From assembly GCA_965263035.1 (NCBI GenBank), contig OZ253580.1, positions 1,392,196 to 1,456,195 of the forward strand: a DNA stretch of 64,000 bases, written 5' to 3'. The position numbers and the translations under genes are program-made. The stretch comes from Acidobacteriota bacterium. Lineage in GTDB: Bacteria; Acidobacteriota; UBA6911; RPQK01; JAJDTT01. The notes under the pieces were generated by a model, which saw nothing but the letters and a program-made list of their open reading frames with translations, was not told the origin of the DNA and made no database searches. This document shows, in pieces, positions 6,256 to 61,731 of this stretch (positions are counted from its first letter, which is position 1; each line of letters begins with the position of its first letter).

Positions 6256-6822
6256 ATGGGACGTAAGCTGGTCTGGACGTCATTGACCCTCTTGGCTCTG
6301 GCCGCGGCGCAGATTGATGCGCAAAAGAGATTCGAACCTCCGATGCGCCTGGGCGTCCCGTTTCCGGCGGCGTGGAAGGCCATGCTGGAAGTCCTGCAAG
6401 GCCAGAAATGGAACCTGGTCAAGAAGGACAGGGGAAGGGGCGAGATCCTGACCGGCTACCGGGAATACATGTCGGGTCCCTTGACGGCAAAACATCTCGA
6501 CAAGATCGGAGTCCGGCCCCGGCTGCCCGACGGGGAGTGGGTTCGGGTCCGCTACCGTTACGATCTGTCGGTCAGTCTGATCCGTGAACGTCAGACGGTG
6601 GTTACCGTCGACAGCGACATCCAGGCGCTCAAACGCGATTTTCTGGGACGGGAGGAGTGGGTCGAGATCGATTCCACCGGGCGGTTGGAAAAACAGTTGC
6701 TGACCGCATTCGGGCAAGCCCTCTACGGGGCCGACTTCTCCCTGGACAAGCGCCGCAAGGGTTTTCTGGGACTGCCCCCCATTGGGGAAGGCCCCACTCC
6801 TGCGAAGCCGCCGGGCAATTGA
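6256..6822 (+). CDS. Hypothetical secreted protein.
   Basis: Signal-peptide-like start MGRKLVWTSLTLLALAAAQIDA. No recognisable family. Confidence 0.5.
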   Translation: MGRKLVWTSLTLLALAAAQIDAQKRFEPPMRLGVPFPAAWKAMLEVLQGQKWNLVKKDRGRGEILTGYREYMSGPLTAKHLDKIGVRPRLPDGEWVRVRYRYDLSVSLIRERQTVVTVDSDIQALKRDFLGREEWVEIDSTGRLEKQLLTAFGQALYGADFSLDKRRKGFLGLPPIGEGPTPAKPPGN

Positions 6823-11176: not shown

Positions 11177-11197
11177 GATCAGGCCGGAGGGCTAGCT

Positions 11198-13662
11198 CTG
11201 CCCTATACCCACAAATAGTGCTGGACAAACAAGAATGCCTGTCGTAGTCTCCACGACATGGCAGTTCAGAACCAGATCAAGCGCACCTTGAGCCGAGAGT
11301 TGGATCGTTTGCACGCCGTGATGAGGCGGGAGAAGTTCGCCCACCGGACGGCGCTGGCGGACCGGGTCTGCTCGGAGTTTGGATTTCACGATGCCCGAGG
11401 GCGGGCGCAACGGAGCGGCTGCCTGAAGGCGCTCCGGGAGCTGGAGGCGGGCGGACGGATTCGTCTGCCGACGCCGCGACGGCGGGTGAAACATTGCGGG
11501 CCCCGAGGACTGGGCCGTGCGGTGCCGGAGCCGGTCGGGGTGCCCGAGACGGTGGACGGCGTGCGGGAGCTGGAGTTGATCGCGGTGGAGACGGGTCCGC
11601 AACGAGCGCTCTGGAACGAGTTGATGGCGCGAGAGCATCCACGGGGCGCGGGGCCGTTGGTGGGTGCTCAACTACGCTATCTGGTGGGCTCGGCGCACGG
11701 CTGGCTGGGGGGCTTGGGGTTCGGGGCGGCGGCGTTGCGGTTGCGGGACCGGGACCGCTGGATCGGATGGGATGAGGAACAACGCCGGGCGCACCTGCAC
11801 CGGGTGGTGGGGCTGAGCCGGTTTCTGATCCGTCCGTCAGTGAGGTGTCGTAATCTGGCCTCCCGGGTGCTGGGGGAGGTGTTGCGGCGGCTGGGTCCGG
11901 AGTTCCAGGCGCGCTACGGCTACCGTCCCTGGCTGGTGGAGACCTTCGTGGAGACGGCTCGCCACGATGGGGCCAGTTTGCGCGCCACGAACTGGAGGGT
12001 TCTGGGGCAGACGCAGGGTCGAGGCCGGCAAGATCGGGCGCACCGGGGTGCGGAGACGAGCAAGGCGATCTATGGGTATGAGTTGTGCCGGGATTGGCGT
12101 CGGCGGTTGGGGGTGGGACCGGCGCCGAGGCGGGGAGTGGAACCGATGTCGGAGGGCGAGGGACTGGAGGGAGCGGGCTGGGCTCAGCAGGAGTTGGGCG
12201 GGGCGCCGCTGGGAGACCGGCGCTTGAGTCGGCGACTGGTGGAGAGTGCGCACCGTCAGGCGCAGGAGCCGGGGCGGGCGTTCACGGGAGTGGCGCGGGG
12301 CGATCCGGCGGCGGTCAAGGGATACTACCGGCTGATCGACCAGCCGGAAGCCTCGGCGGTGACGGTGTCCAACATCCTGGCCCCGCACCGGGAGCGGACC
12401 CGGCAGCGGATGCAGGGGCAGCGGACGGTGCTGTGCATCCAGGACGGGAGCGATCTGAACTTCACGCGGCACGGCCGGTGTGAGGGACTGGGGGTGATCG
12501 GGCGCAACCAGACGGGAGCGACGGCGCGGGGACTGCATCTGCACGCGACGCTGGTGGTGAGTGAGACGGGGCTGCCGCTGGGGGTGTTGCGGGCGAAGCT
12601 GGACGCGCCGAAGCCGGGACCGGTGGCCACGCGGAAAAAGAAGAAGACGTATCGCTGGATCGAGGGACTTCGGGACTGCGCCGAGGTGTCGCGGTCCCTC
12701 GACGGGGTGCGGGTGGTCAGCGTGGTGGACCGGGAGGCGGATTTTTTCGCACTGTTCGCCGAGCAACGAGCGTCTCCGGAGGTGGAGTTGCTGGTGCGTG
12801 CGAAGCAGGATCGGGTGCTGAAGCGGAAGACCCGGGCGAAGGCGGCCGGGAAAAGCGGGGATCCGGACCAGGAGCAGAAGCGGAAGCTGTTCGGGCGCCT
12901 GCGATCGGCGCCGGTGCGGGCCCGGATGCTGCTGGAGGTGAAGCGTCAGAGTGCGCGGATCAAGGCCAGCAAGCAGGCGGCCCGCCCGCGGCGGCTGGCG
13001 CGGGTGGCACGGATGGAACTGCGCTACGAGACCCTGACGATTCCGGCGCCGCGCGGGAACCCAACCGGCATCCCGTCGCTGAGACTGTCGGTGGTGCACG
13101 CGCGGGAGGTCGCGCCGCCGGCGCAGGGGAAGCGCCTGGAATGGTTCCTGCTCACCACCCTGCCGGTGACCGATGTCGAGACGGCGCAGCAACTGCTGAG
13201 ATGGTATGCCCTGCGCTGGCGGGTGGAGGATTATTTCCGGGTGCTCAAGACCGGATGCCGGGTGCAACAGCTCCAGCACCAAACCGCCGAACGTCTGAAA
13301 CGGGCCATCGCCATGCACGCCGTCATCGCCTGGCGGATCATGCTGATGACGCTGTTGGGGCGAGAGGACCCGGATCTGCCGGCGCAGTTGCTGTTTTCCG
13401 ATCTGGAAATCCGGGTCCTGGGGGCGTTTGCCGCGTCGCGACGATACCCACCGCCGGAAGACCTGGGGGCGGCCGTGCTCGTGCTGGCCCGCCTGGGAGG
13501 ATATCTGGCTCGTAAACACGACCCCCCACCCGGGCATCAACTGCTGTGGCAGGGCTACGTCACGCTTTACGGCATGTGTCTGGGCTTCGCTTTACGAGAA
13601 GAAACATGAACGAAACCAGACCCAGGCTAATGTGCCCTGTGCAATATGTGGGTAAAGGGCAG
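11198..13662 (+). mobile_element. IS4/Tn5-like insertion sequence, copy 1 (the divergent copy).
   Basis: Imperfect terminal inverted repeats CTGCCCTATACCCACAAATAGTGC ... GCAATATGTGGGTAAAGGGCAG. An 8-bp direct repeat GGCTAGCT lies at 11190-11197 and 13663-13670. It contains the 783-aa transposase ORF. Confidence 0.9.
11258..13609 (+). CDS. Fusion protein: N-terminal ~300-aa domain (DUF4338/DruA-like, from memory) + Tn5-type DDE transposase.
   Basis: The C-terminal ~470 aa match Tn5 Tnp in the DNA-binding region and the DDE triad (IQDGSD, VVDREADFF, RWRVEDYFRVLKTG). The N-terminal 300 aa have no transposase counterpart. Confidence 0.85.
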   Translation: MAVQNQIKRTLSRELDRLHAVMRREKFAHRTALADRVCSEFGFHDARGRAQRSGCLKALRELEAGGRIRLPTPRRRVKHCGPRGLGRAVPEPVGVPETVDGVRELELIAVETGPQRALWNELMAREHPRGAGPLVGAQLRYLVGSAHGWLGGLGFGAAALRLRDRDRWIGWDEEQRRAHLHRVVGLSRFLIRPSVRCRNLASRVLGEVLRRLGPEFQARYGYRPWLVETFVETARHDGASLRATNWRVLGQTQGRGRQDRAHRGAETSKAIYGYELCRDWRRRLGVGPAPRRGVEPMSEGEGLEGAGWAQQELGGAPLGDRRLSRRLVESAHRQAQEPGRAFTGVARGDPAAVKGYYRLIDQPEASAVTVSNILAPHRERTRQRMQGQRTVLCIQDGSDLNFTRHGRCEGLGVIGRNQTGATARGLHLHATLVVSETGLPLGVLRAKLDAPKPGPVATRKKKKTYRWIEGLRDCAEVSRSLDGVRVVSVVDREADFFALFAEQRASPEVELLVRAKQDRVLKRKTRAKAAGKSGDPDQEQKRKLFGRLRSAPVRARMLLEVKRQSARIKASKQAARPRRLARVARMELRYETLTIPAPRGNPTGIPSLRLSVVHAREVAPPAQGKRLEWFLLTTLPVTDVETAQQLLRWYALRWRVEDYFRVLKTGCRVQQLQHQTAERLKRAIAMHAVIAWRIMLMTLLGREDPDLPAQLLFSDLEIRVLGAFAASRRYPPPEDLGAAVLVLARLGGYLARKHDPPPGHQLLWQGYVTLYGMCLGFALREET

Positions 13663-13664
13663 GG

Positions 13665-15104
13665 CTAGCTCGCGCCGCGGCCCCAGACTACGGCCGGTAT
13701 GGTCTTGAGCAGAATCCAGAGATCGAGCTTCAAGGACCACTGGTCGATGTACTGGAGATCCAGCTTCATCCATTCCTGAAAGTCCAGCTCGTTCCGGCCG
13801 GAGATCTGCCAGAGACAGGTGATGCCCGGCTTGACGCTCAGGCGCCGCCGCTGGCTCCGGGAATAGTGCCGGACCTCCTCGGGGAGCGGCGCCCGGGGGC
13901 CCACCAGGCTCATCTCGCCTCTCAACACGTTTGCCAGTTGCGGCAACTCGTCGATGCTGTACCTGCGCAGAATGCGTCCCAAGGACGTCACGCGGGGATC
14001 GTTGCGCATCTTGAACACCGGACCGTCCATCTCGTTGAGATGCCGGAGTTCCCGGAGCTGGTCCTCGGCCCCTTCGACCATGGTGCGAAACTTGACCAGC
14101 CGGAACTCCCGGCCGTAGAGCCCGCGCCGAACCTGACGATAGAAGACCGATCCGGGTGAGGTGAACTTGATCAGAGCCATGATCAGGAGCATGAAGGGGG
14201 ACGCCAGCGCCAGCAGAGCCGACGCCAGGACACAATCCATGATCCGCTTGACCACCAGGGCCACGCTCTGGTCCGGAGCCATGGAGAAGGTGATGAGGGG
14301 AAGCTCCTCCAGGAAATCGAGCGATAGCCTGGAGGCGGATGCGGGGAAGAAGTCGGCGGCGATCCGGGTCCGGATTCCGAGCTCCTCACACAGTTTCAGA
14401 ACCTCCTGAAACTGGCGGTTGTCCTCGGGCTGAGCGTCCACGAATATGATCTCGTCCACGATCAGCCGGTCCATGACCAAGTCGGGAAGATCCTTGAGCG
14501 ATCCCACAATCCGTATCCCGGGGGCCTCGGTCCAGGTTTCTCCAGGCGCCAGATGTCCGACGACGTGGTAGCCCCACTTTCGGAACCGGACCAGCACCTC
14601 GCTGACATGCTGGGCCCGGGAGTCGATTCCCACGACCAGGATCTTGACCTGATGGTGCTCGTTGACGTTCCGGGTCCTCAAGATCCAATGCAGCAGAATG
14701 CGGTTCAAGCCCAGAAAGAGACCGGAGAGTCCGATGAAATTGAAGAAAACGGGCCGGCTCACATCCAGGTCGAACACGAAGACGATGAAACCCACGGCAA
14801 GACCGGCGGCGCAGACGAAGCGGCCGATGCGGAACAGGTGCTGGGAGGCGGAGACCTGGTAGAAGCGAGAGTATTGTTGGGTCATCCGGAGGATGGGAAT
14901 CCAAATCGGCAACACGGCCAGCAGATAGACCAGGTAACGGGAATAGGGCAGCAGAACCGGATGGAATGCGGGCGCGATCAAGGCCGGCGCCAATTCCACC
15001 AGCAAGGATCGGGAGAAATAGGCCAGGGTCAAGGCCAGAAAGGCGACGGCGATGTCCGCCGCCTGAAGGAGGTTGCCGTAGACTTGAGACTGGCGATCGA
15101 ACAT
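13665..15104 (-). CDS. Polyprenyl-phosphate sugar phosphotransferase (WcaJ/EpsL-like bacterial sugar transferase, exopolysaccharide priming).
   Basis: N-terminal TM helices plus the C-terminal Bac_transf blocks KFRTM, DELPQL and SLVGPRP. Its stop codon lies inside the CTAG target duplication of IS copy 1. Confidence 0.85.
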   Translation of the reverse strand: MFDRQSQVYGNLLQAADIAVAFLALTLAYFSRSLLVELAPALIAPAFHPVLLPYSRYLVYLLAVLPIWIPILRMTQQYSRFYQVSASQHLFRIGRFVCAAGLAVGFIVFVFDLDVSRPVFFNFIGLSGLFLGLNRILLHWILRTRNVNEHHQVKILVVGIDSRAQHVSEVLVRFRKWGYHVVGHLAPGETWTEAPGIRIVGSLKDLPDLVMDRLIVDEIIFVDAQPEDNRQFQEVLKLCEELGIRTRIAADFFPASASRLSLDFLEELPLITFSMAPDQSVALVVKRIMDCVLASALLALASPFMLLIMALIKFTSPGSVFYRQVRRGLYGREFRLVKFRTMVEGAEDQLRELRHLNEMDGPVFKMRNDPRVTSLGRILRRYSIDELPQLANVLRGEMSLVGPRAPLPEEVRHYSRSQRRRLSVKPGITCLWQISGRNELDFQEWMKLDLQYIDQWSLKLDLWILLKTIPAVVWGRGAS

Positions 15105-29186: not shown

Positions 29187-29353
29187 CTAGGAGGCTGCGC
29201 CGCAGAAATTGATCTACTGCGAAAGCGGTAGAATCGGTCCATATTTCCTCGATTTCTCGGCGAATAGAACAACTATGCACCTCCAAATCGAGAAAATCTG
29301 GCCTCGATTCCCCACTTTCTCGCTACGATCATTTCTACCGCGCAGACTCCTAG
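29187..29353 (+). repeat. MITE-like ~165-bp repeat, copy A.
   Basis: Same sequence as 50846-51012. Its reverse complement is at 35103-35268. Terminal inverted repeats GAGGCTGCGCCGCAGAAAT ... ATTTCTACCGCGCAGACTC. A CTAG tetranucleotide bounds both ends. Confidence 0.85.
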
Positions 29354-29355
29354 CC

Positions 29356-31817
29356 CTGCTCTATACCCACAAATAGTGCTGGACAAACAAGAATGCCTGT
29401 CGTAGTCTTCACGACATGGTAGTTCAGAACCAGATCAAGCGCACCTTGAGCCGAGAGTTGGATCGTTTGCACGCCGTGATGAGGCGGGAGAAGTTCGCCC
29501 ACCGGACGGCGCTGGCGGACCGGGTCTGCTCGGAGTTTGGATTTCACGATGCCCGAGGGCGGGCGCAACGGAGCGGCTGCCTGAAGGCGCTCCGGGAGCT
29601 GGAGGCGGGCGGACGGATTCGTCTGCCGACGCCGCGACGGCGGGTGAAACATTGCGGGCCCCGAGGACTGGGCCGTGCGGTGCCGGAGCCGGTGGAAGTG
29701 CCCGAGACGGTGGACGGCGTGCGGGAGCTGGAGTTGATTCTGGTGGAGACGGGTCCGCAACGAGCGCTCTGGAACGAGTTGATGGCGCGAGAGCATCCAC
29801 GGGGCGCGGGGCCGTTGGTGGGTGCTCAACTACGCTATCTGGTGGGCTCGGCCCACGGCTGGCTGGGGGGCTTGGGGTTCGGGGCGGCGGCGTTGCGGTT
29901 GCGGGACCGGGACCGCTGGATCGGATGGGATGAGGAACAACGCCGGGCGCACCTGCACCGGGTGGTGGGGCTGAGCCGGTTTCTGATCCGTCCGTCAGTG
30001 AGGTGTCGTAATCTGGCCTCCCGGGTGCTGGGGGAGGTGTTGCGGCGGCTGGGTCCGGAGTTCCAGGCGCGCTACGGCTACCGTCCCTGGCTGGTGGAGA
30101 CCTTCGTGGAGACGGCTCGCCACGATGGGGCCAGTTTGCGCGCCACGAACTGGAGGGTTCTGGGGAAGACGCAGGGTCGAGGCCGGCAAGATCGGGCGCA
30201 CCGGGGTGCGGAGACGAGCAAGGCGATCTATGGGTATGAGTTGTGCCGGGATTGGCGTCGGCGGTTGGGGGTGGGACCGGCGCCGAGGCGGGGAGTGGAA
30301 CCGATGTCGGAGGGCGAGGGACTGGAGGGAGAGGGCTGGGCTCAGCAGGAGTTGGGCGGGGCGCCGCTGGGAGACCGGCGCTTGAGTCGGCGACTGGTGG
30401 AGAGTGCGCACCGTCAGGCGCAGGAGCCGGGGCGGGCGTTCACGGGAGTGGCGCGGGGCGATCCGGCGGCGGTCAAGGGATACTACCGGCTGATCGACCA
30501 GCCGGAAGCCTCGGCGGTGACGGTGTCCAACATCCTGGCCCCGCACCGGGAGCGGACCCGGCAGCGGATGCAGGGGCAGCGGACGGTGCTGTGCATCCAG
30601 GACGGGAGCGATCTGAACTTCACGCGGCACGGCCGGTGTGAGGGACTGGGGGTGATCGGGCGCAACCAGACGGGAGCGACGGCGCGGGGACTGCATCTGC
30701 ACGCGACGCTGGTGGTGAGTGAGACGGGGCTGCCGCTGGGGGTGTTGCGGGCGAAGCTGGACGCGCCGAAGCCGGGACCGGTGGCCACGCGGAAAAAGAA
30801 GAAGACGTATCGCTGGATCGAGGGACTTCGGGACTGCGCCGAGGTGTCGCGGTCCCTCGACGGGGTGCGGGTGGTCAGCGTGGTGGACCGGGAGGCGGAT
30901 TTTTTCGCACTGTTCGCCGAGCAACGAGCGTCTCCGGAGGTGGAGTTGCTGGTGCGTGCGAAGCAGGATCGGGTGCTGAAGAGGAAGACCCCGGCGAAGG
31001 CGGCCGGGAAAAGCGCGGATCCGGACCCGGAGCAGAAGCGGAAGCTGTTCGGGCGCCTGCGATCGGCGCCGGTGCGGGCCCGGATGCTGCTGGAGGTGAA
31101 GCGTCAGAGTGCGCGGATCAAGGCCAGCAAGCAGGCGGCCCGCCCGCGGCGGCTGGCGCGGGTGGCTCGGATGGAACTGCGCTACGAGACCCTGACGATT
31201 CCGGCGCCGCGCGGGAACCCAACCGGCATCCCGTCGCTGAGACTGTCGGTGGTGCACGCGCGGGAGGTCGCGCCGCCGGCGCAGGGGAAGCGCCTGGAAT
31301 GGTTCCTGCTCACCACCCTGCCGGTGACCGATGTCGAGACGGCGCAGCAACTGCTGAGATGGTATGCGCTGCGCTGGCGGGTGGAGGATTATTTCCGGGT
31401 GCTCAAGACCGGATGCCGGGTACAACAGCTCCAGCACCAAACCGCCGAACGTCTGAAACGGGCCATCGCCATGCACGCCGTCATCGCCTGGCGGATCATG
31501 CTGATGACGCTGTTGGGGCGAGAGGACCCGGACCTGCCGGCGCAATTGTTGTTCTCGGATCTGGAAATTCGGGTCCTGGGGGCGTTTGCCGCGTCGCGAG
31601 GATTCCCAGCGCCGGAAGACCTGGGGGCGGCCGTGCTCGTGCTGGCCCGCCTGGGAGGATATCTGGCTCGTAAACACGACTCCCCACCTGGGCATCAACT
31701 GATGTGGCAGGGCTACGTCACGCTCTACGGCATGTGTCTGGGCTTCGCTTTACGAGAAGAAACATGAATGAAACCGGACGGCTAATTTGCCCTGTGCAAT
31801 ATGTGGGTAAAGGGCAG
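29356..31817 (+). mobile_element. IS4/Tn5-like insertion sequence, copy 2.
   Basis: 8-bp TSD TCCTAGCC at 29348-29355 and 31818-31825. The left IR carries one mismatch (CTGCTC). Confidence 0.9.
29416..31767 (+). CDS. Fusion transposase (DUF4338-like N-domain + Tn5-type DDE transposase), copy 2.
   Basis: 783 aa, ~99% identical to copies 3 and 4. Confidence 0.85.
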   Translation: MVVQNQIKRTLSRELDRLHAVMRREKFAHRTALADRVCSEFGFHDARGRAQRSGCLKALRELEAGGRIRLPTPRRRVKHCGPRGLGRAVPEPVEVPETVDGVRELELILVETGPQRALWNELMAREHPRGAGPLVGAQLRYLVGSAHGWLGGLGFGAAALRLRDRDRWIGWDEEQRRAHLHRVVGLSRFLIRPSVRCRNLASRVLGEVLRRLGPEFQARYGYRPWLVETFVETARHDGASLRATNWRVLGKTQGRGRQDRAHRGAETSKAIYGYELCRDWRRRLGVGPAPRRGVEPMSEGEGLEGEGWAQQELGGAPLGDRRLSRRLVESAHRQAQEPGRAFTGVARGDPAAVKGYYRLIDQPEASAVTVSNILAPHRERTRQRMQGQRTVLCIQDGSDLNFTRHGRCEGLGVIGRNQTGATARGLHLHATLVVSETGLPLGVLRAKLDAPKPGPVATRKKKKTYRWIEGLRDCAEVSRSLDGVRVVSVVDREADFFALFAEQRASPEVELLVRAKQDRVLKRKTPAKAAGKSADPDPEQKRKLFGRLRSAPVRARMLLEVKRQSARIKASKQAARPRRLARVARMELRYETLTIPAPRGNPTGIPSLRLSVVHAREVAPPAQGKRLEWFLLTTLPVTDVETAQQLLRWYALRWRVEDYFRVLKTGCRVQQLQHQTAERLKRAIAMHAVIAWRIMLMTLLGREDPDLPAQLLFSDLEIRVLGAFAASRGFPAPEDLGAAVLVLARLGGYLARKHDSPPGHQLMWQGYVTLYGMCLGFALREET

Positions 31818-31819
31818 TC

Positions 31820-32500
31820 CTAGCCACCCGATCTCGATTTTCGGCCCAGGTGAAGACATGCGATCCCGGCCGAGAGGGTTCGGTGGTGGATCTCGCGGAA
31901 CCCCGCCCTCTCCAGCAACCGGTCCAGATCCTCGGGCGCGAGGAACTGTCGCACCGACCGGGAGAGATAGTCGTAGGCTGGTCCGTGTCCCGAGATCCAA
32001 CCGCCGAGTCGAGGCAGGATCCGCACGAAATAGAACAGGTACAGCGACCTGAACAGCGGCAAAGTGGGGAGCGTAAACTCCAGGATGGCCAACACGCCTC
32101 GGGGTCGGAGCACCCGATGCATTTCGGCCAGACCCTGGCGGTAGCTCTCCAGATTCCTCAATCCGAACGCGATGCTGACGGCGTCGAAGGACCGGTCCGG
32201 AAAGGGGAGTCTCAGCGCGTCCCCTTCGGCGAACGCAACACGACGGCCGTTTGCGGAACGGGACGCCTTCTTCTTACCCAAAACCAGCATGGGATGAGAG
32301 AAGTCACACGCCACCACCGAACCCACATTGGAGAGCTCCAGGGCCAGGTCCCCGGTTCCCGTGCACAGGTCCAATATCCGCGGTTCCGACGGCAGCCGGC
32401 GTTCCAGCTCGCGCCTCGTCACCCGCCTCCAGCGCCGGTCCACGGACAGGGAGAGAAGACGGTTGGCCCGGTCGTATCGGGGGGCAATGGCGCCGAACAT
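31820..32500 (-). CDS. ubiE: UbiE/MenG-family demethylmenaquinone/ubiquinone C-methyltransferase.
   Basis: MFGAIAPRYDRANRLLSL plus the SAM-binding motif LDLCTGTGD. The start is uncertain; the ORF extends upstream in frame. Its stop codon lies inside the TSD of IS copy 2. Confidence 0.7.
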   Translation of the reverse strand: MFGAIAPRYDRANRLLSLSVDRRWRRVTRRELERRLPSEPRILDLCTGTGDLALELSNVGSVVACDFSHPMLVLGKKKASRSANGRRVAFAEGDALRLPFPDRSFDAVSIAFGLRNLESYRQGLAEMHRVLRPRGVLAILEFTLPTLPLFRSLYLFYFVRILPRLGGWISGHGPAYDYLSRSVRQFLAPEDLDRLLERAGFREIHHRTLSAGIACLHLGRKSRSGG

Positions 32501-32738
32501 CCGGCGGATCCGCCCCGATTCCTTATCAGTCCGTGGTGAAAGTCCCGCGTAGCACCGAGACCGGGGCTGCGCCCGCCGGACCAGGCGCGGTGAGGGAGCA
32601 TATTCGACCCTATGTGACCGAGGCGCAACGCAGTCCGCGCACGATGCAGACCCGGTCGAATGCCGCGACGACTTTTGCCACGGGCTATTATCCTCCATTT
32701 GAATCCCCGGAACCCGCGACGGCAATCCCCGGCGACCG

Positions 32739-33830
32739 CTATTTCACTTGCTTCACTTGGTCCCAGGCCCGCGCCAGGTCCTGGTCTGGAATGTCGTCCC
32801 GGATCCGGGTGATCCCGATCGCCGCCAGCAACACGACGACCGTACGTTGATTCCGGCGTTTCTTGTCCCGCTTCATGGCCTCCACGACGCGACCCGTGGG
32901 CACCGTATCGATCGTTGGCAGAGGCCCGATCTCCCGGATCGACTGCACTGCCCGGTCCCGTGACTCCCGTGAAAGACCCGTGCGCCAATGCGAGAGATGA
33001 GCAGCAGCCATCATTCCGTAGGCTACCGCTTCCCCGTGGGTCACCCCCTGAAATCGGACGGCGGATTCCAGTCCGTGACCGAAGGTATGTCCCAGGTTCA
33101 GTATTCGCCGCAGATCCGATTCGCGTTCGTCCTGGGCGGTGACCTGCGCCTTGATCTGGCAGCAGCGCTGGATCAACTGCTGCATCACCGGGGCCTTCCG
33201 GGCCTGGATCTCTTCCAGCGACGCGTTCAGCCAATCGAAGAATTCGGCGTCCCGGATGAGGCCGTACTTGAACACTTCATAGAGTCCGGACTGATACTCT
33301 CGTTGAGGCAAGGAGAGAAGGGTTTCCGGGTCGATGCAGACCAGGCTCGGCTGCCAGAAGGAACCGACCATGTTCTTGGCCAGACCATGATTGACTCCGG
33401 TCTTGCCTCCAACTGAACTGTCCACCTGAGCCACCATCGTCGTCGGGATCTGGATATACGGAATTCCCCGCATGAAGGTGGCAGCGGCGAATCCCGCGAT
33501 GTCTCCGGTCACGCCGCCACCCAGGGCCAACAGGGCCGACGAGCGATCCGCGCCGCCGGTCACGAGCTGTCCGTAGATCCGCTCGACGGTTCGGAGTGTC
33601 TTGTGGGATTCTCCGTCCGGTATCAGAATCTCCGATACCCGGAACCCGAAGTCCGCGAGACCCTGCATGAGCCGCTCGCCGTAGAGTTCGTGGACCGTGG
33701 GATTGGAGACCAGGAACAGCCTCCGGGTCGTCTCGCGGTCGCTCAGCAGCCTCGGGACCTCGGCCAGGAGACCGGGACCGATCAGGATGTCATAGCTGCG
33801 GCCGGGAAGGCTGACCTGAACCGTCTTCAC
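32739..33830 (-). CDS. aroB: 3-dehydroquinate synthase.
   Basis: GGGVTGDIAGFAAATFMRGIPYIQIPTT and the metal/NAD-binding blocks typical of AroB. Confidence 0.85.
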   Translation of the reverse strand: MKTVQVSLPGRSYDILIGPGLLAEVPRLLSDRETTRRLFLVSNPTVHELYGERLMQGLADFGFRVSEILIPDGESHKTLRTVERIYGQLVTGGADRSSALLALGGGVTGDIAGFAAATFMRGIPYIQIPTTMVAQVDSSVGGKTGVNHGLAKNMVGSFWQPSLVCIDPETLLSLPQREYQSGLYEVFKYGLIRDAEFFDWLNASLEEIQARKAPVMQQLIQRCCQIKAQVTAQDERESDLRRILNLGHTFGHGLESAVRFQGVTHGEAVAYGMMAAAHLSHWRTGLSRESRDRAVQSIREIGPLPTIDTVPTGRVVEAMKRDKKRRNQRTVVVLLAAIGITRIRDDIPDQDLARAWDQVKQVK

Positions 33831-33917
33831 CGGGTTCCTTTCCTGCTGTACGCCGCTTTGGGAAATCGCGTCGGCATCGATGCGGCTGGTGCGATCTTGG
33901 AAAAAACCGGTCCCGGG

Positions 33918-34901
33918 CTAACCCAGCACGCCTTCCAGAGGACTGCTCGCCGTGGCGTAGAGCTTGCGGGGAATCCGCCCCGCCTTATAGGCCAGACGAC
34001 CCGACTCCACGGCCAGTTTCATGCTCCGGGCCATGGACACCGGATCCTTGGCGCCGGCAATCCCGGTGTTCATGAGGACTCCGTCGATCCCCAGCTCCAT
34101 GGCCAGCGTGGCGTCGGAAGCGGTCCCGACACCGGCGTCGACGATGACGGGAACCGAGGCGAACTCCAGGATGATGCGGATATTGTTGGGGTTCTGGATG
34201 CCGAGGCCCGAACCGATGGGGGCTCCCAACGGCATCACCGCCGCCGCTCCCGCATCCTCCAGCCGCTTGCAGACGATGGGGTCGTCGTTGGTGTAGGGGA
34301 GCACCACGAATCCTTCCTTGACCAGCACGTGCGTGGCTTCCAACAAGGCTTCGTTGTCGGGGAACAGCGTGCGCTCGTCTCCGATCACCTCCAGCTTGAC
34401 CAGATTCGACAGGCCCGCCTCCCGCCCCAGCCGGGCGTATCGAATCGCTTCGGCCGCCGTGTAGCAGCCGGCGGTGTTGGGCAACAGCCGGTAGCGGTTG
34501 GGGTCGATGTGGTCCAGGAGGGATTCTCGAGTCTTGTCGGTCAGATTGACGCGCCGCACGGCCACCGTGACCAACTCGGCCCCGCTGGCCTCCAAGGCCT
34601 GCTCCATCTGGCCGAAGGTCGCGTATTTCCCCGTTCCCACCAGCAAACGGGAGTGATACTCACGTCCGGCTATGGTCAGCGTATCTTCCACGGCCCCTCC
34701 TCCCACGAAATGAACGATTTCGATCCGATCGCCACTTTGGATTTCCTGCTCGGCCCACCGGGCACGGCGGACGATCCGCTCATTGATTTCGACCGCGACC
34801 CGACCCCCCTCAAGCTCCAGATCCTGAACCAGATCCGCCACACTGCGGCCCAATTCCACCCGGTGCTGCAGACCATTCAAAACGACTTGGATCTTGCCCA
34901 T
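33918..34901 (-). CDS. thiG: ThiS-ThiG fusion: sulfur-carrier ThiS domain + thiazole synthase ThiG.
   Basis: The N-terminal ~66 aa end in ...IVHFVGGG (ubiquitin-like ThiS C-terminal GG). The remainder is a canonical ThiG TIM barrel ([17 protein letters not shown]). Confidence 0.8.
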
Positions 34902-35102
34902 GGGTCCATCGTTTTCGAGCCCAGTCTACTACGACGCCGCGCCCGTCTGCCAGCCGGACGGAGCCCTGACCCGCGGGGCATCGGCCCATTCCGGGACCAT
35001 CGTCCGGCTCTAGCGGACCCAGGGTCGGAGCCACTCAACTTCCGGTCGAATTCCTCATCGAATGTTGGCGAGCGCCATCAACCTTGACGGGGTTCTGCAC
35101 CA

Positions 35103-35268
35103 CTAGAGTCTGCGCGGTAGAAATGATCGTAGCGAGAAAGTGGGGAATCGAGGCCAGATTTTCTCGATTTGGAGGTGCATAGTTGTTCTATTCGCCGAGA
35201 AATCGAGGAAATATGGACCGATTCTACCGCTTTCGCAGTAGATCGATTTCTGCGGCGCAGGCTCCTAG
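35103..35268 (-). repeat. MITE-like repeat, copy B (inverted orientation).
   Basis: Reverse complement of copy A. CTAG at both ends (35103-35106 and 35265-35268). Confidence 0.85.
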
Positions 35269-41678: not shown

Positions 41679-42109
41679 GATCCCTCCCGCGTCCGTTCTT
41701 TGGGCGGAGTGGTCCCGGCTTGCATATCCGCCGTCCAGTCTACTACGACCCCGCGAATCTCAGACACAGGGAACGAACCACCGGCGCAGGGACCACGGCA
41801 GGTTCACGACTTCGCCTTTCGTCCCCAGAATGGGTCCTCGGTTAACAGCCCGTGGCAAAAGTCGTCACGGCATTCGACCGTCCCTGCATCGTGCGCGGAC
41901 TGCGTTGCGAACTCGGTCACATACTCCCGGTAGGCTCCCTCATTGCGCCTTGTCCGGCGGCGGGCGCAGGAATGGTCTCGGTGCTCGCGGGACTTTCACC
42001 ACGGACTGTTAAACGCCCATGTGGACGAGTGTCGAGACAGCATATTCCAAGACTCGCCGCGGCCCGATATCGGGTCCGTTCGTTGACACCATCCGGGCCC
42101 TTCACTAAG

Positions 42110-48298: not shown

Positions 48299-48381
48299 CT
48301 TTGGCGAAGGCCCTGCGCAGCCATTGCCGCAATCTCCGTCCAGAGGGTCCGCTCGCCGCACCGTAGAGGGGCTGGCTAGGA

Positions 48382-50843
48382 CTGCCCTATACCCACAAAT
48401 AGTGCTGGACAAACAAGAATGCCTGTCGTAGTCTTCACGACATGGTAGTTCAGAACCAGATCAAGCGCACCTTGAGCCGAGAGTTGGATCGTTTGCACGC
48501 CGTGATGAGGCGGGAGAAGTTCGCCCACCGGACGGCGCTGGCGGACCGGGTCTGCTCGGAGTTTGGATTTCACGATGCCCGAGGGCGGGCGCAACGGAGC
48601 GGCTGCCTGAAGGCGCTCCGGGAGCTGGAGGCGGGCGGACGGATTCGTCTGCCGACGCCGCGACGGCGGGTGAACCATTGCGGGCCCCGAGGACTGGGCC
48701 GTGCGGTGCCGGAGCCGGTCGGGGTGCCCGAGACGGTGGACGGCGTGCGGGAGCTGGAGTTGATTCTGGTGGAGACGGGTCCGCAACGAGCGCTCTGGAA
48801 CGAGTTGATGGCGCGAGAGCATCCACGGGGCGCGGGGCCGTTGGTGGGTGCTCAACTACGCTATCTGGTGGGCTCGGCCCACGGCTGGCTGGGGGGCTTG
48901 GGGTTCGGGGCGGCGGCGTTGCGGTTGCGGGACCGGGACCGCTGGATCGGATGGGATGAGGAACAACGCCGGGCGCACCTGCACCGGGTGGTGGGGCTGA
49001 GCCGGTTTCTGATCCGTCCGTCAGTGAGGTGTCGTAATCTGGCCTCCCGGGTGCTGGGGGAGGTGTTGCGGCGGCTGGGTCCGGAGTTCCAGGCGCGCTA
49101 CGGCTACCGTCCCTGGCTGGTGGAGACCTTCGTGGAGACGGCTCGCCACGATGGGGCCAGTTTGCGCGCCACGAACTGGAGGGTTCTGGGGCAGACGCAG
49201 GGTCGAGGCCGGCAAGATCGGGCGCACCGGGGTGCGGAGACGAGCAAGGCGATCTATGGGTATGAGTTGTGCCGGGATTGGCGGCGGCGGTTGGGGGTGG
49301 GACCGGCGCCGAGGCGGGGAGTGGAACCGATGTCGGAGGGCGAGGGACTGGAGGGAGCGGGCTGGGCTCAGCAGGAGTTGGGCGGGGCGCCGCTGGGAGA
49401 CCGGCGCTTGAGTCGGCGACTGGTGGAGAGTGCGCACCGACAGGCGCAGGAGCCGGGGCGGGCGTTCACGGGAGTGGCGCGGGGGGATTCTGCGGCGGTC
49501 AAGGGATACTACCGGCTGATCGACCAGCCGGAAGCCTCGGCGGTGACGGTGTCCAACATCCTGGCCCCGCACCGGGAGCGGACCCGGCAGCGGATGCAGG
49601 GGCAGCGGACGGTGCTGTGCATCCAGGACGGGAGCGATCTGAACTTCACGCGGCACGGCCGGTGTGAGGGACTGGGAGTGATCGGGCGCAACCAGACGGG
49701 AGCGACGGCGCGGGGACTGCATCTGCACGCGACGCTGGTGGTGAGTGAGACGGGGCTGCCGCTGGGGGTGTTGCGGGCGAAGCTGGACGCGCCGAAGCCG
49801 GGACCGGTGGCCACGCGGAAAAAGAAGAAGACGTATCGCTGGATCGAGGGACTTCGGGACTGCGCCGAGGTGTCGCGGTCCCTCGACGGGGTGCGGGTGG
49901 TCAGCGTGGTGGACCGGGAGGCGGATTTTTTCGCACTGTTCGCCGAGCAACGAGCGTCTCCGGAGGTGGAGTTGCTGGTGCGTGCGAAGCAGGATCGGGT
50001 GCTGAAGAGGAAGACCCCGGCGAAGGCGGCCGGGAAAAGCGCGGATCCGGACCCGGAGCAGAAGCGGAAGCTGTTCGGGCGCCTGCGATCGGCGCCGGTG
50101 CGGGCCCGGATGCTGCTGGAGGTGAAGCGTCAGAGTGCGCGGATCAAGGCCAGCAAGCAGGCGGCCCGCCCGCGGCGGCTGGCGCGGGTGGCTCGGATGG
50201 AACTGCGCTACGAGACCCTGACGATTCCGGCGCCGCGCGGGAACCCAACCGGCATCCCGTCGCTGAGACTGTCGGTGGTGCACGCGCGGGAGGTCGCGCC
50301 GCCGGCGCAGGGGAAGCGCCTGGAATGGTTCCTGCTCACCACCCTGCCGGTGACCGATGTCGAGACGGCGCAGCAACTGCTGAGATGGTATGCGCTGCGC
50401 TGGCGGGTGGAGGATTATTTCCGGGTGCTCAAGACCGGATGCCGGGTACAACAGCTCCAGCACCAAACCGCCGAACGTCTGAAACGGGCCATCGCCATGC
50501 ACGCCGTCATCGCCTGGCGGATCATGCTGATGACGCTGTTGGGGCGAGAGGACCCGGACCTGCCGGCGCAATTGTTGTTTTCCGATCTGGAAATCCGGGT
50601 CCTGGGGGCGTTTGCCGCGTCGCGAGGATTCCCAGCGCCGGAAGACCTGGGGGCGGCCGTGCTCGTGCTGGCCCGCCTGGGAGGATATCTGGCTCGTAAA
50701 CACGACTCCCCACCTGGGCATCAACTGATGTGGCAGGGCTACGTCACGCTCTACGGCATGTGTCTGGGCTTCGCTTTACGAGAAGAAACATGAATGAAAC
50801 CGGACGGCTAATTTGCCCTGTGCAATATGTGGGTAAAGGGCAG
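48382..50843 (+). mobile_element. IS4/Tn5-like insertion sequence, copy 3.
   Basis: 8-bp TSD GGCTAGGA at 48374-48381 and 50844-50851. The right TSD overlaps the start of MITE copy C. Confidence 0.9.
48442..50793 (+). CDS. Fusion transposase, copy 3.
   Basis: 783 aa. It differs from copy 4 at ~2 positions. Confidence 0.85.
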   Translation: MVVQNQIKRTLSRELDRLHAVMRREKFAHRTALADRVCSEFGFHDARGRAQRSGCLKALRELEAGGRIRLPTPRRRVNHCGPRGLGRAVPEPVGVPETVDGVRELELILVETGPQRALWNELMAREHPRGAGPLVGAQLRYLVGSAHGWLGGLGFGAAALRLRDRDRWIGWDEEQRRAHLHRVVGLSRFLIRPSVRCRNLASRVLGEVLRRLGPEFQARYGYRPWLVETFVETARHDGASLRATNWRVLGQTQGRGRQDRAHRGAETSKAIYGYELCRDWRRRLGVGPAPRRGVEPMSEGEGLEGAGWAQQELGGAPLGDRRLSRRLVESAHRQAQEPGRAFTGVARGDSAAVKGYYRLIDQPEASAVTVSNILAPHRERTRQRMQGQRTVLCIQDGSDLNFTRHGRCEGLGVIGRNQTGATARGLHLHATLVVSETGLPLGVLRAKLDAPKPGPVATRKKKKTYRWIEGLRDCAEVSRSLDGVRVVSVVDREADFFALFAEQRASPEVELLVRAKQDRVLKRKTPAKAAGKSADPDPEQKRKLFGRLRSAPVRARMLLEVKRQSARIKASKQAARPRRLARVARMELRYETLTIPAPRGNPTGIPSLRLSVVHAREVAPPAQGKRLEWFLLTTLPVTDVETAQQLLRWYALRWRVEDYFRVLKTGCRVQQLQHQTAERLKRAIAMHAVIAWRIMLMTLLGREDPDLPAQLLFSDLEIRVLGAFAASRGFPAPEDLGAAVLVLARLGGYLARKHDSPPGHQLMWQGYVTLYGMCLGFALREET

Positions 50844-50845
50844 GG

Positions 50846-51012
50846 CTAGGAGCCTGCGCGGCAGAAATTGATCTACTGCGAAAGCGGTAGAATCGGTCCA
50901 TATTTCCTCGATTTCTCGGCGAATAGAACAACTATGCACCTCCAAATCGAGAAAATCTGGCCTCGATTCCCCACTTTCTCGCTACGATCATTTCTACCGC
51001 GCAGACTCCTAG
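50846..51012 (+). repeat. MITE-like repeat, copy C.
   Basis: Identical in organisation to copy A. CTAG at 50846-50849 and 51009-51012; the latter contains the stop codon of the downstream methyltransferase gene. Confidence 0.85.
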
Positions 51013-51533
51013 ACCTCGCCGTAGACCTCCGCAAGGGCCTTGTTCTCGACCCGGATGCGCGTACGGAGCGCTAGCAGGTTCAGCACGGATGCGATCACTG
51101 CCAGTGTCCACGCGCCGAACATCAGCGGCACCACGGCGATCTCGCCGCAAACGATCAGGTAATTCGGGTGGTTGACGTAGCGGTACGGCCCGGCCCGAAT
51201 GCGTTTGGCGCCGGGCACGACCATGACGCGAGTCGTCCATCGCGAACCCAGGGTCACGACCACCCACACCCGCCCGCACTCCAGCAGGACGAAGACGGCC
51301 AGCAGCGGGATCGACACCGGCGTCTGCGGATCGATGGTGCCAAGCAGCGCCAGCAGCCAGCCGGCGTGCAGGGCGACAAGCGCGGGATAGTGCCGCCGGC
51401 CGAACTCGATCGCCCCCCGAGCCACCAGCGCCCGATGGTTGCGCCGTGCGATGCCCAGTTCCACGAGACGCTGAAAAACCAGAAAGCCGATGATCGCGTA
51501 CAGGGGGCTCATGGGAAACGAGCTCAGCATCAC
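51009..51533 (-). CDS. Isoprenylcysteine carboxyl methyltransferase (ICMT)-family membrane methyltransferase.
   Basis: Multi-TM ~170-aa protein with the C-terminal RVENKALAEVYGE-type motif of ICMT/phospholipid methyltransferase family enzymes. It overlaps the PKS gene by 4 bp. Confidence 0.7.
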   Translation of the reverse strand: MMLSSFPMSPLYAIIGFLVFQRLVELGIARRNHRALVARGAIEFGRRHYPALVALHAGWLLALLGTIDPQTPVSIPLLAVFVLLECGRVWVVVTLGSRWTTRVMVVPGAKRIRAGPYRYVNHPNYLIVCGEIAVVPLMFGAWTLAVIASVLNLLALRTRIRVENKALAEVYGEV

Positions 51534-52585
51534 ATCGACTGCAGTAGCAGGAATCCGGCCGAAAACCCCGGGCCCAGGCTGGTCAACAGGTGCCGTTTCG
51601 CCGTGCGGTCCCTGAGCATGCGGTCGAGTACGAACAGCACGGTCGCGGCCGACATGTTGCCGTAGTCACGCAAGACCGCCCGCGACTCTTCGAGCCCCCC
51701 GGGCGGGAGGTCGAACGCCTCTTCGAGGGCGTCAAGCACCTTGGCGCCGCCGGGGTGGCAGACGAAGCTGTCGATATCGCGAAGACCCAGGCTCCGGGTG
51801 GAAAGAAATTCCTCCGTTGCGCGCCGCATGCGCGAACGGACGAGGTCGGGAATACTGCGCGAGAACACGACCCCGAACCCGTCATCGGCCACGTCCCAAC
51901 CCATGATGTCGAGCGAATCAGGCCACGTGTATTCGCCCCACGAGGAGATCGCCGGTCCCGGTCCGTCATCCGTCAGCAATACCGCCGCGGCGCCGTCACG
52001 GAACAACGCCGTGGCGACGAGGTTCCGAACGGATCGATCGCGGCCACGGAACGTGAGGGTGCAGAGTTCTACGACCAGGAACAGAACGCGACTGCCAGGA
52101 GAAGCCCGCGCACAAGCGGCGGCGCGCGCCAGCCCCAGCACGCCTCCTGCGCATCCCAGACCGAAGATCGGCAGTCTTTGCACGTCGCGGCGAAACGGCA
52201 GCTCGGTCATGAGCCTGGCGTCCAGGCTGGGCGTAGCGATGCCGGTCGTCGAGACGGTGACGATCAGGTCGATGTCGCCGGGGTCGGTGTTGCCGGCGGC
52301 CAGGCACTCGACGGCCGCGTCTTTCAGCAGGGCCACCGCATTTTCGAGGTACAGCCGGTTCTTCTCCGCGAAGCCGTGCCCGGTTTCCCCGTACCAGCTT
52401 CTGGGCAGGCAGCAATACCCTTCTCCGATCGCCGCGTTCTCGTAAACATCAAGCAGGCGATCCAGGCCCGCGACGCTGCCGGCAAAGAAACTGGCACCGA
52501 AATCCCTGACCTCGTCCTGGGTTATCCGGTGGGACGGAACCGCCGTCGCGATCGACCTGATTCGCGGACCCGATTCTGCCGTCAC
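51530..52585 (-). CDS. Type III polyketide synthase (chalcone/stilbene synthase family).
   Basis: Catalytic Cys in GLGCAGG, His in CHPGGAKV, Asn in GNMSAATVLFVL, and the GPGFS C-terminal motif. Confidence 0.85.
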   Translation of the reverse strand: MTAESGPRIRSIATAVPSHRITQDEVRDFGASFFAGSVAGLDRLLDVYENAAIGEGYCCLPRSWYGETGHGFAEKNRLYLENAVALLKDAAVECLAAGNTDPGDIDLIVTVSTTGIATPSLDARLMTELPFRRDVQRLPIFGLGCAGGVLGLARAAACARASPGSRVLFLVVELCTLTFRGRDRSVRNLVATALFRDGAAAVLLTDDGPGPAISSWGEYTWPDSLDIMGWDVADDGFGVVFSRSIPDLVRSRMRRATEEFLSTRSLGLRDIDSFVCHPGGAKVLDALEEAFDLPPGGLEESRAVLRDYGNMSAATVLFVLDRMLRDRTAKRHLLTSLGPGFSAGFLLLQSM

Positions 52586-59261: not shown

Positions 59262-61723
59262 CTGCCCTATACCCACAAATAGTGCTGGACAAACAAGAAT
59301 GCCTGTCGTAGTCTTCACGACATGGTAGTTCAGAACCAGATCAAGCGCACCTTGAGCCGAGAGTTGGATCGTTTGCACGCCGTGATGAGGCGGGAGAAGT
59401 TCGCCCACCGGACGGCGCTGGCGGACCGGGTCTGCTCGGAGTTTGGATTTCACGATGCCCGAGGGCGGGCGCAACGGAGCGGCTGCCTGAAGGCGCTCCG
59501 GGAGTTGGAGGCGCGCGGACGGATTCGTCTGCCGACGCCGCGACGGCGGGTGAAACATTGCGGGCCCCGAGGACTGGGCCGTGCGGTGCCGGAGCCGGTC
59601 GGGGTGCCCGAGACGGTGGACGGCGTGCGGGAGCTGGAGTTGATTCTGGTGGAGACGGGTCCGCAACGAGCGCTCTGGAACGAGTTGATGGCGCGAGAGC
59701 ATCCACGGGGCGCGGGGCCGTTGGTGGGTGCTCAACTACGCTATCTGGTGGGCTCGGCCCACGGCTGGCTGGGGGGCTTGGGGTTCGGGGCGGCGGCGTT
59801 GCGGTTGCGGGACCGGGACCGCTGGATCGGATGGGATGAGGAACAACGCCGGGCGCACCTGCACCGGGTGGTGGGGCTGAGCCGGTTTCTGATCCGTCCG
59901 TCAGTGAGGTGTCGTAATCTGGCCTCCCGGGTGCTGGGGGAGGTGTTGCGGCGGCTGGGTCCGGAGTTCCAGGCGCGCTACGGCTACCGTCCCTGGCTGG
60001 TGGAGACCTTCGTGGAGACGGCTCGCCACGATGGGGCCAGTTTGCGCGCCACGAACTGGAGGGTTCTGGGGCAGACGCAGGGTCGAGGCCGGCAAGATCG
60101 GGCGCACCGGGGTGCGGAGACGAGCAAGGCGATCTATGGGTATGAGTTGTGCCGGGATTGGCGGCGGCGGTTGGGGGTGGGACCGGCGCCGAGGCGGGGA
60201 GTGGAACCGATGTCGGAGGGCGAGGGACTGGAGGGAGCGGGCTGGGCTCAGCAGGAGTTGGGCGGGGCGCCGCTGGGAGACCGGCGCTTGAGTCGGCGAC
60301 TGGTGGAGAGTGCGCACCGACAGGCGCAGGAGCCGGGGCGGGCGTTCACGGGAGTGGCGCGGGGGGATTCTGCGGCGGTCAAGGGATACTACCGGCTGAT
60401 CGACCAGCCGGAAGCCTCGGCGGTGACGGTGTCCAACATCCTGGCCCCGCACCGGGAGCGGACCCGGCAGCGGATGCAGGGGCAGCGGACGGTGCTGTGC
60501 ATCCAGGACGGGAGCGATCTGAACTTCACGCGGCACGGCCGGTGTGAGGGACTGGGAGTGATCGGGCGCAACCAGACGGGAGCGACGGCGCGGGGACTGC
60601 ATCTGCACGCGACGCTGGTGGTGAGTGAGACGGGGCTGCCGCTGGGGGTGTTGCGGGCGAAGCTGGACGCGCCGAAGCCGGGACCGGTGGCCACGCGGAA
60701 AAAGAAGAAGACGTATCGCTGGATCGAGGGACTTCGGGACTGCGCCGAGGTGTCGCGGTCCCTCGACGGGGTGCGGGTGGTCAGCGTGGTGGACCGGGAG
60801 GCGGATTTTTTCGCACTGTTCGCCGAGCAACGAGCGTCTCCGGAGGTGGAGTTGCTGGTGCGTGCGAAGCAGGATCGGGTGCTGAAGAGGAAGACCCCGG
60901 CGAAGGCGGCCGGGAAAAGCGCGGATCCGGACCCGGAGCAGAAGCGGAAGCTGTTCGGGCGCCTGCGATCGGCGCCGGTGCGGGCCCGGATGCTGCTGGA
61001 GGTGAAGCGTCAGAGTGCGCGGATCAAGGCCAGCAAGCAGGCGGCCCGCCCGCGGCGGCTGGCGCGGGTGGCTCGGATGGAACTGCGCTACGAGACCCTG
61101 ACGATTCCGGCGCCGCGCGGGAACCCAACCGGCATCCCGTCGCTGAGACTGTCGGTGGTGCACGCGCGGGAGGTCGCGCCGCCGGCGCAGGGGAAGCGCC
61201 TGGAATGGTTCCTGCTCACCACCCTGCCGGTGACCGATGTCGAGACGGCGCAGCAACTGCTGAGATGGTATGCGCTGCGCTGGCGGGTGGAGGATTATTT
61301 CCGGGTGCTCAAGACCGGATGCCGGGTACAACAGCTCCAGCACCAAACCGCCGAACGTCTGAAACGGGCCATCGCCATGCACGCCGTCATCGCCTGGCGG
61401 ATCATGCTGATGACGCTGTTGGGGCGAGAGGACCCGGACCTGCCGGCGCAATTGTTGTTTTCCGATCTGGAAATCCGGGTCCTGGGGGCGTTTGCCGCGT
61501 CGCGAGGATTCCCAGCGCCGGAAGACCTGGGGGCGGCCGTGCTCGTGCTGGCCCGCCTGGGAGGATATCTGGCTCGTAAACACGACTCCCCACCTGGGCA
61601 TCAACTGATGTGGCAGGGCTACGTCACGCTCTACGGCATGTGTCTGGGCTTCGCTTTACGAGAAGAAACATGAATGAAACCGGACGGCTAATTTGCCCTG
61701 TGCAATATGTGGGTAAAGGGCAG
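59262..61723 (+). mobile_element. IS4/Tn5-like insertion sequence, copy 4, inserted in hsdS.
   Basis: 8-bp TSD CCCTAGCC at 59254-59261 and 61724-61731. Confidence 0.9.
59322..61673 (+). CDS. Fusion transposase, copy 4.
   Basis: 783 aa. All DDE residues are intact. Confidence 0.85.
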   Translation: MVVQNQIKRTLSRELDRLHAVMRREKFAHRTALADRVCSEFGFHDARGRAQRSGCLKALRELEARGRIRLPTPRRRVKHCGPRGLGRAVPEPVGVPETVDGVRELELILVETGPQRALWNELMAREHPRGAGPLVGAQLRYLVGSAHGWLGGLGFGAAALRLRDRDRWIGWDEEQRRAHLHRVVGLSRFLIRPSVRCRNLASRVLGEVLRRLGPEFQARYGYRPWLVETFVETARHDGASLRATNWRVLGQTQGRGRQDRAHRGAETSKAIYGYELCRDWRRRLGVGPAPRRGVEPMSEGEGLEGAGWAQQELGGAPLGDRRLSRRLVESAHRQAQEPGRAFTGVARGDSAAVKGYYRLIDQPEASAVTVSNILAPHRERTRQRMQGQRTVLCIQDGSDLNFTRHGRCEGLGVIGRNQTGATARGLHLHATLVVSETGLPLGVLRAKLDAPKPGPVATRKKKKTYRWIEGLRDCAEVSRSLDGVRVVSVVDREADFFALFAEQRASPEVELLVRAKQDRVLKRKTPAKAAGKSADPDPEQKRKLFGRLRSAPVRARMLLEVKRQSARIKASKQAARPRRLARVARMELRYETLTIPAPRGNPTGIPSLRLSVVHAREVAPPAQGKRLEWFLLTTLPVTDVETAQQLLRWYALRWRVEDYFRVLKTGCRVQQLQHQTAERLKRAIAMHAVIAWRIMLMTLLGREDPDLPAQLLFSDLEIRVLGAFAASRGFPAPEDLGAAVLVLARLGGYLARKHDSPPGHQLMWQGYVTLYGMCLGFALREET

Positions 61724-61731
61724 CCCTAGCC

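Follow-up and report, generated by a model that had tools for sequence, protein, structure and literature searches.

The 64-kb stretch of DNA analysed here, referred to below as the window, carries three copies of a short repeat, and all three are present where the first-pass annotation had placed them. Copy A occupies 29187..29353 on the plus strand (CTAG at 29187-29190, a 159-bp core at 29191-29349 and CTAG again at 29350-29353), copy C lies in the same orientation at 50846..51012 (CTAG, core 50850-51008, CTAG) and copy B is found in reverse orientation, on the minus strand, at 35103..35268 (core 35106-35264). The cores begin with GAG, end with CTC, measure 159 bp and differ from one another at 2-3 positions (98-99% identity). 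The CTAG reported for each terminus was seen on both sides of the cores, copy B being one base short at the junction of its GAGTC end, which reads CTAGAGTC in place of CTAGGAGTC. A 44-nt internal probe matched the window exactly three times, at copies A, B and C, and never in 100 shuffles, and the terminal-repeat pattern matched exactly six ends against 0.07 expected. The ends read GAG[G/C]CTGCGC[C/G]GCAGAAAT on one side and GAGTCTGCGCGGTAGAAAT on the other, with the consensus GAG[C/T]CTGCGC[G/C]G[C/T]AGAAAT, also written GAG[C/T]CTGCGCGG[C/T]AGAAAT. These terminal inverted repeats (TIRs) had been put at ~15 bp; they are in fact ~19-22 bp long with 2-3 mismatches, and complementarity spans the whole unit. 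The internal open reading frame (MFYSPRNRG...), already suspected to be non-coding, was rejected as a gene: a 1-nt indel between 158- and 159-bp units breaks it, the frames differ between subfamilies and the ORF is not conserved among them.

Two of the copies adjoin methyltransferase genes. A ubiE/COQ5-type gene lies on the minus strand at 31820..32725, and its TAG stop (31820-31822) belongs to the CTAG that once flanked the GAGTC end of MITE A; copy 2 of the resident IS described below now separates this stop from the MITE. An ICMT-family gene, also on the minus strand (51009..51533), shares an operon with the gene for a type III polyketide synthase (51530-52585) and takes its TAG stop from the right CTAG of MITE C, again at the GAGTC end. 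A degenerate remnant of the terminal repeat (ACCTCGCCGTAGA, 51013..51025, plus strand) adjoins MITE C and encodes the last ICMT codons. In L050, a stretch from another genome, the ICMT orthologue ends in ...EVYGAGS* and carries at 4949-4971 an intact 16-nt repeat (GAGCCTGCGCCGTAGA) by a CTAG and no MITE, unlike window positions 51009-51025, where a complete MITE occupies the CTAG of a repeat that is degenerate. Copy B lies upstream of a thiS-thiG fusion gene (33918-34901, minus strand), at a distance of ~200 nt; a 494-aa ORF beside it (33603-35087, plus strand) was discarded as a spurious antisense frame of this gene (ThiG E=1e-111).

The window also holds four copies of a resident 2,462-bp IS, all on the plus strand. 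In its 783-aa protein, an N-terminal DruA domain (PF14236), of the family of Druantia defence proteins, is fused to a Tn5-like transposase of the IS4 family. Copies 1 (11198..13662) and 4 (59262..61723) have no adjoining MITE and are bounded by the duplications GGCTAGCT (11190-11197 and 13663-13670) and CCCTAGCC (59254-59261 and 61724-61731), respectively. Copy 2 (29356..31817, transposase 29416-31767) lies in the right-hand CTAG of MITE A and is bounded by the 8-bp duplication TCCTAGCC at 29348-29355 and 31818-31825, while copy 3 (48382..50843) lies in the left-hand CTAG of MITE C between duplications GGCTAGGA at 48374-48381 and 50844-50851. Judged from the exact end coordinates of the four copies, the resident IS duplicates 8 bp centred on CTAG, of the form NNCTAGNN.

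The 159-bp unit had been described as a discrete short repeat rather than a part of a larger element, and an orthologous pair of loci substantiates this description. When the MITE and 4 bp are removed from the filled locus (L059), it aligns without gap across the junction with the empty one (L070), where the site reads CGAG. Two other comparisons were set aside: L050 offers no clean empty site, both MITE positions being rearranged despite synteny with the window, and L037, compared with L055, is occupied at the same stop codon by a fragment from another MITE. In several family members the flanking tetranucleotides have diverged to ATAG, TTAG or CTTG, which suggests that many insertions are old. 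The unit shows the traits by which MITEs are recognized, namely small size (below ~300 bp), several near-identical copies, TIRs, CTAG flanks, an empty site in a relative and a non-coding interior.

The fragment seen in L037 (138-193) belongs to a second repeat family of ~160 bp, with members in the window at 41853-42008 (plus strand) and ~32524-32686 (minus strand) and in L027 at 1749-1909. Its ends read CAGCCCGTGGCAAAAGTC ... GACTTTCACCACGGACTG, and the TTAA flanks of one copy (41849-42012) indicate that this family is probably another MITE, targeting TTAA or TAA. In L037 the fragment lies at the TAA stop of an ABC-ATPase gene, and in L055 the TAG stop of the same gene carries the CTAG MITE.

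Members of the first family were sought in one genome per species with a pattern consisting of YTAR followed by the terminal repeat. More than 95 stretches were among the matches listed, against ~4 expected by chance from an arithmetic estimate, and at least 61 of the listed stretches are short inverted pairs, mostly of 158-161 bp and nearly all flanked by CTAG on both sides. Copies at least 91% identical to those of the window occur in at least 10 Acidobacteriota assemblies (one labelled Aminicenantes and one 'bacterium'), with at least 14 loci in OZ241897.1 and at least 10 in CBDCJH010000002.1. The window shows synteny with L050, at 87-90% identity, and so comes from a relative of these organisms. 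Units of similar length at 60-75% identity were found in Granulosicoccaceae, Tamilnaduibacter, Pseudomonadales and other Gammaproteobacteria; among hosts in culture, Tamilnaduibacter salinus DSM 28688 has one of these related subfamilies. The subfamilies have three features in common: the terminal repeats, the subterminal pair GCGA.AA / TT.GCAG and, at the centre, the motif TTTGAGG-[CATAG...CTATG stem-loop]-ACGAAAATGA. The terminal repeat was encountered in Acidobacteriota, Gammaproteobacteria, Betaproteobacteria and one contig labelled Anaerolineaceae, and its presence in several phyla implies an IS lineage that crosses phyla. A blastn search of a plasmid collection with the unit, a scan of viral contigs for the repeat pattern and a comparison of both strands with Rfam covariance models (E<=1) gave no match; a metagenome scan with a family-specific 27-mer gave five loci, one of them a full copy in usable context and three the truncated 52-nt remnant described below.

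No IS1182 transposase is detectable in the 64-kb window, even at E<=1, and for this reason the MITE is called non-autonomous. The first-pass annotation had reasoned that a CTAG-targeting transposase other than that of the resident IS must mobilize the unit, and a search for an IS with matching inverted repeats led to full-length elements of the IS1182 family which, with the same TIRs and CTAG flanks, would be suitable mobilizers. A full-length element in Candidatus Foliamicus (L017, 893-2446) has the same ends, flanked as CTAG|GAGCC...GGCTC|CTAG, and encodes a 439-aa transposase scoring 361 bits on the NF033551 model 'IS1182 family transposase' (cut-off 270), with DUF772 and DDE_Tnp_1 domains. 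Another from Massilia (L043) encodes a 487-aa protein with DUF772 and DDE domains that scores 324 bits on the IS1182-family model (cut-off 270). In three contigs labelled as acidobacterial or Thermoanaerobaculia (L009, L062 and L085), the same 21-nt end follows CTAG and an IS1182-type transposase starts ~27 nt further on. An IS1182 element on a Halomonas plasmid has similar ends and CTAG flanks.

The best known relative is ISKpn6, the IS1182-family IS found next to blaKPC in Tn4401, whose transposase is 52% identical to that of L017. Its junctions read CTAG|GAGCCTGCGCGGCAGAAGCC ... GCCGCGCAGACTC|CTAG, the right end being also given as GGCTCTGCCGCGCAGACTC. The outer 16 nt of its left TIR are identical to those of the MITE (GAGCCTGCGCGGCAGA), the right end agrees at 15/16 positions and CTAG is present on both flanks; full-length ISKpn6-like relatives with the complete 19-nt repeat are found in Gammaproteobacteria, Betaproteobacteria and Acidobacteriota. 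Unlike ISKpn6, which measures ~1.54 kb and carries its own 439-aa transposase gene, the MITE is 159 bp long, non-coding and palindromic throughout, and the two have no interior in common. Beyond ~21 nt, indeed, the MITE interior bears no likeness to the ends of the elements in L017, L009, L062 and L085, of ISKpn6 or of the Halomonas IS; either the direct parent IS may be unsampled or the interior may be of unrelated origin. From the ends and their flanks, we regard the 159-bp unit as very probably a non-autonomous MITE that belongs, within the IS1182 family, to the ISKpn6-like branch. Mobilized in trans by an IS1182-type transposase, it would offer its 19-22-bp TIRs as binding sites to a DDE enzyme encoded elsewhere in the genome, which would insert it into the palindrome CTAG and duplicate these 4 bp.

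IS1182-derived MITEs of this size have precedents. MITEPye1 of Paracoccus yeei is an intergenic, IS1182-derived unit of 159 bp whose repeats measure 18 bp; it duplicates GGCC and is predicted to form a stem-loop as RNA (PMC11578231). The window family shares with it the IS1182 derivation, the length, repeats starting GAGNCTG, a 4-bp palindromic target duplication, an intergenic location and a predicted RNA hairpin (PMC11578231). MITEPye1 differs in its GGCC target, in repeats that diverge after position 7 (GAGACTGTGTAAAAACTC) and in a dissimilar interior, as well as in a much weaker fold, reported at -48 kcal/mol, and 1-3 copies per genome in a single species (PMC11578231). The IS1182 element ISPsy36 targets GGCC as well (PMC8027508). 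In the archaeon Methanosarcina acetivorans, MITEs of 160 and 169 bp derived from ISMac2, with repeats of ~25 bp and in one case a 4-bp duplication, also belong to the IS1182 family and are of similar size, a likeness drawn from their description only (PMC3852290). What sets the window family apart from the published IS1182 MITEs is its CTAG target, its sequence, a palindrome that extends over the full length, its copy number and the range of its hosts. Its initial description as novel holds in so far as no paper describing the family was found; it does not hold for the type of element, since the literature already contains IS1182-derived MITEs of this size and public Acidobacteriota assemblies commonly carry the element. 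In the papers searched, the end sequence appears only in KPC primer lists.

Other short multicopy palindromic units are known from intergenic regions, where ERIC, YPAL, Correia and REP-type repeats are co-transcribed and fold as RNA hairpins. The window MITE may behave in the same way in 3' regions, but they have other sequences and other or unknown mobilizers. REPs measure 20-40 bp, have GTAG or CGTC heads and are moved through RAYT proteins; identity with a REP or BIME was rejected for a unit of 159 bp with GAG...CTC ends and a CTAG duplication.

The computed fold of the whole unit is a single long hairpin, an imperfect palindrome with arms of ~80 bp. As RNA, one strand folds at -90.7 kcal/mol and the other at -68.0 (z -10 and -8); the better-folding strand begins with GAGTCTGCGCGGTAG, corresponds to the minus strand for copy A and is the same in most subfamilies. 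The asymmetry is also obtained with DNA parameters (-47.9 vs -37.4). A consensus hairpin built from 12 representatives of divergent subfamilies has 95% of its cells paired. Two-sided changes affect 23/50 pairs, against 13.8 +/- 1.9 in shuffles, none of which (0/500) reaches this value, and 6-15 in slid controls. Cells with G.U outnumber those with A.C by 55:21 over a strand-neutral union of pairs, in a test weakened by the relatedness of the sequences and by two G.U positions inherited in the terminal repeats. Among the positions conserved best are those of an asymmetric internal loop in which GAGG faces ACGA. Promoter and terminator scans of the unit found neither, and no U tract follows the hairpin.

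The position of the hairpin relative to genes is not symmetrical. Both window copies that abut a stop codon, A and C, have the TAG stop at the GAGTC end, and the arrangement was followed in 36 family members (window and L002-L098) with mostly unrelated flanks, the flanking ORFs other than the two window genes being judged by length, codon-position GC and reading of their translations. Among ORFs of at least 125 codons, an adjoining TAG stop was counted at the GAGTC end of 15 independent copies and at the GAGCC end of 2 (binomial p 0.002); with a threshold of 150 codons, the counts are 13 and 2 (p 0.007). A TAG stop at the GAGTC end means that the transcript of the upstream gene would carry the better-folding strand. 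Replication direction was considered as a cause and rejected, since orientation showed no relation to local GC skew, in what is a weak test on 8-kb pieces. The bias may stem from selection for a 3'-end hairpin, from a back-up in-frame TAG located five codons on, or from something else. The upstream tetranucleotide of several copies has become ATAG or TTAG, a drift that alters only the third position of the last codon. Three metagenomic stretches (L099 5218-5274, L101 11155-11211 and L102 1128-1184) have in common a remnant consisting of the first 52 nt of the MITE, placed in the same arrangement, where it immediately follows the TAG that ends a 368-aa ORF.

These observations can be read as a host-retained RNA hairpin module, for which transposition would only be the means of arrival: transcribed at the 3' end of the upstream gene, it would be terminator-like or mRNA-stabilizing, and copies would be kept wherever this is of benefit; this would add to the MITE reading, and we consider it rather doubtful. 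It draws on the whole-unit fold with the same stronger strand in most subfamilies, on the two-sided changes, the G.U excess and the conserved GAGG/ACGA loop, and on a 15 to 2 orientation bias to which both stop-abutting window copies conform and which has no link to GC skew. Several of these points have a weaker side, however: the unit lacks a U tract and contains no terminator or promoter that could be found, the weaker strand still folds very stably, the asymmetry persists with DNA folding parameters, two of the G.U positions are inherited in the terminal repeats, compensatory changes are also expected if both arms bind the same protein, and copy B stands in the other orientation. A broader proposal, to which we lean slightly more while still judging it improbable, is that of a cross-phylum, IS1182-mobilized family of ~160 bp, in Acidobacteriota and several Gammaproteobacteria, in which selection on one strand keeps the hairpin. 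Its members would persist preferentially immediately behind (C)TAG stops, oriented with the more stable hairpin at the 3' end of the mRNA, and would be mobile 3'-end modules, terminator-like or stabilizing, and not just selfish elements. The only features that go beyond an ordinary MITE are the hairpin conserved across phyla and the orientation bias at stop codons, and any function at the RNA level is putative.

It is considerably less probable that MITE C and the adjoining repeat remnant mark the edge of a composite element, bounded by MITEs and carrying the type III polyketide synthase-ICMT operon. In L050 the operon does lie between the solo 16-nt repeat with its CTAG (4949-4968) and a complete MITE (6546-6703), the repeats being inverted, and the window has MITE C and the degenerate repeat at the ICMT end. 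The other end of the operon carries no repeat in the window, however, where 52597-52869 is unrelated AT-rich DNA; the whole segment is without flanking duplication, and the operon was seen at only one genomic location, in two related genomes.

The mobilizer could also belong to a different CTAG-using family, an IS630/Tc1-like one duplicating TA or one of the IS5 group, in which case the ends would read GGAG...CTCC. IS630 inserts at CTAG and duplicates TA, and with a palindromic target a 4-bp CTAG duplication and a TA duplication are inseparable from the sequence. ISPsy32 has been reported as another CTAG-targeting IS (PMC8027508). We nevertheless find such a mobilizer very unlikely, because the full-length elements that were found with such ends all encode a transposase of the IS1182 family. 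Moreover, the GGCC-targeting IS1182 derivative MITEPye1 also begins with GAG and ends with CTC, which argues that the tetranucleotide is part of the target rather than of the element; for the same reason the duplication is better taken as the 4 bp CTAG than as 2 bp inside it. Last, an origin of the unit from the resident 2.46-kb IS, by deletion or as a solo end, is next to impossible: physical contact with two IS copies is its sole support, whereas the IS ends (CTGCCCTATACCC... and ...GGGTAAAGGGCAG) share nothing with those of the MITE, as the annotation had stated, two IS copies stand apart from any MITE, no IS adjoins MITE B, MITEs occur without the IS in other genomes, and the junction sequences refute descent from the DruA and Tn5-like IS4 element by placing the MITE first.

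The junctions instead record the order in which an ISKpn6-like IS1182 MITE and the unrelated resident IS would have come together. The contacts noticed at the outset, between MITE A and IS copy 2 and between MITE C and IS copy 3, are borne out by the 8-bp duplications, which hold two terminal MITE bases together with CTAG; the IS thus entered beside MITEs that were already present. In CBDCJH010000002.1 (L027), a 95%-identical IS copy lies against a MITE end within the duplication GCCTAGGA, and its different flanks indicate that the insertion beside the MITE was there an independent event. The suggestion of successive insertions into rare CTAG sites agrees with the counts, since the window contains 20 CTAG sites where base composition predicts ~215, an approximately tenfold depletion, and 12/20 of these sites are at MITE or IS junctions. 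This scarcity explains why the IS lands on the CTAGs that flank the MITEs. Each MITE insertion would create a second CTAG in a CTAG-poor genome, and the resident IS, with its 8-bp duplications centred on this tetranucleotide, would tend toward the MITE flanks, giving rise to end-to-end nesting.

Several consequences may be drawn for these organisms and for the IS1182 family. A type of mobilizer, the ISKpn6-like IS1182 transposases, can now be proposed for a repeat abundant in assemblies of the poorly studied Acidobacteriota, which would otherwise confuse annotation and assembly. Strong depletion of CTAG channels two transposons that are unrelated to each other into a handful of shared sites, in many cases stop codons, and this explains the nested junctions. 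The end sequence further ties environmental elements to ISKpn6, the IS beside blaKPC. Should selection at the RNA level underlie both the bias in orientation and the strand asymmetry of the hairpin, the family would provide a tractable case of 3'-end structures supplied by a transposon to genes of a high-GC phylum without good terminator models.
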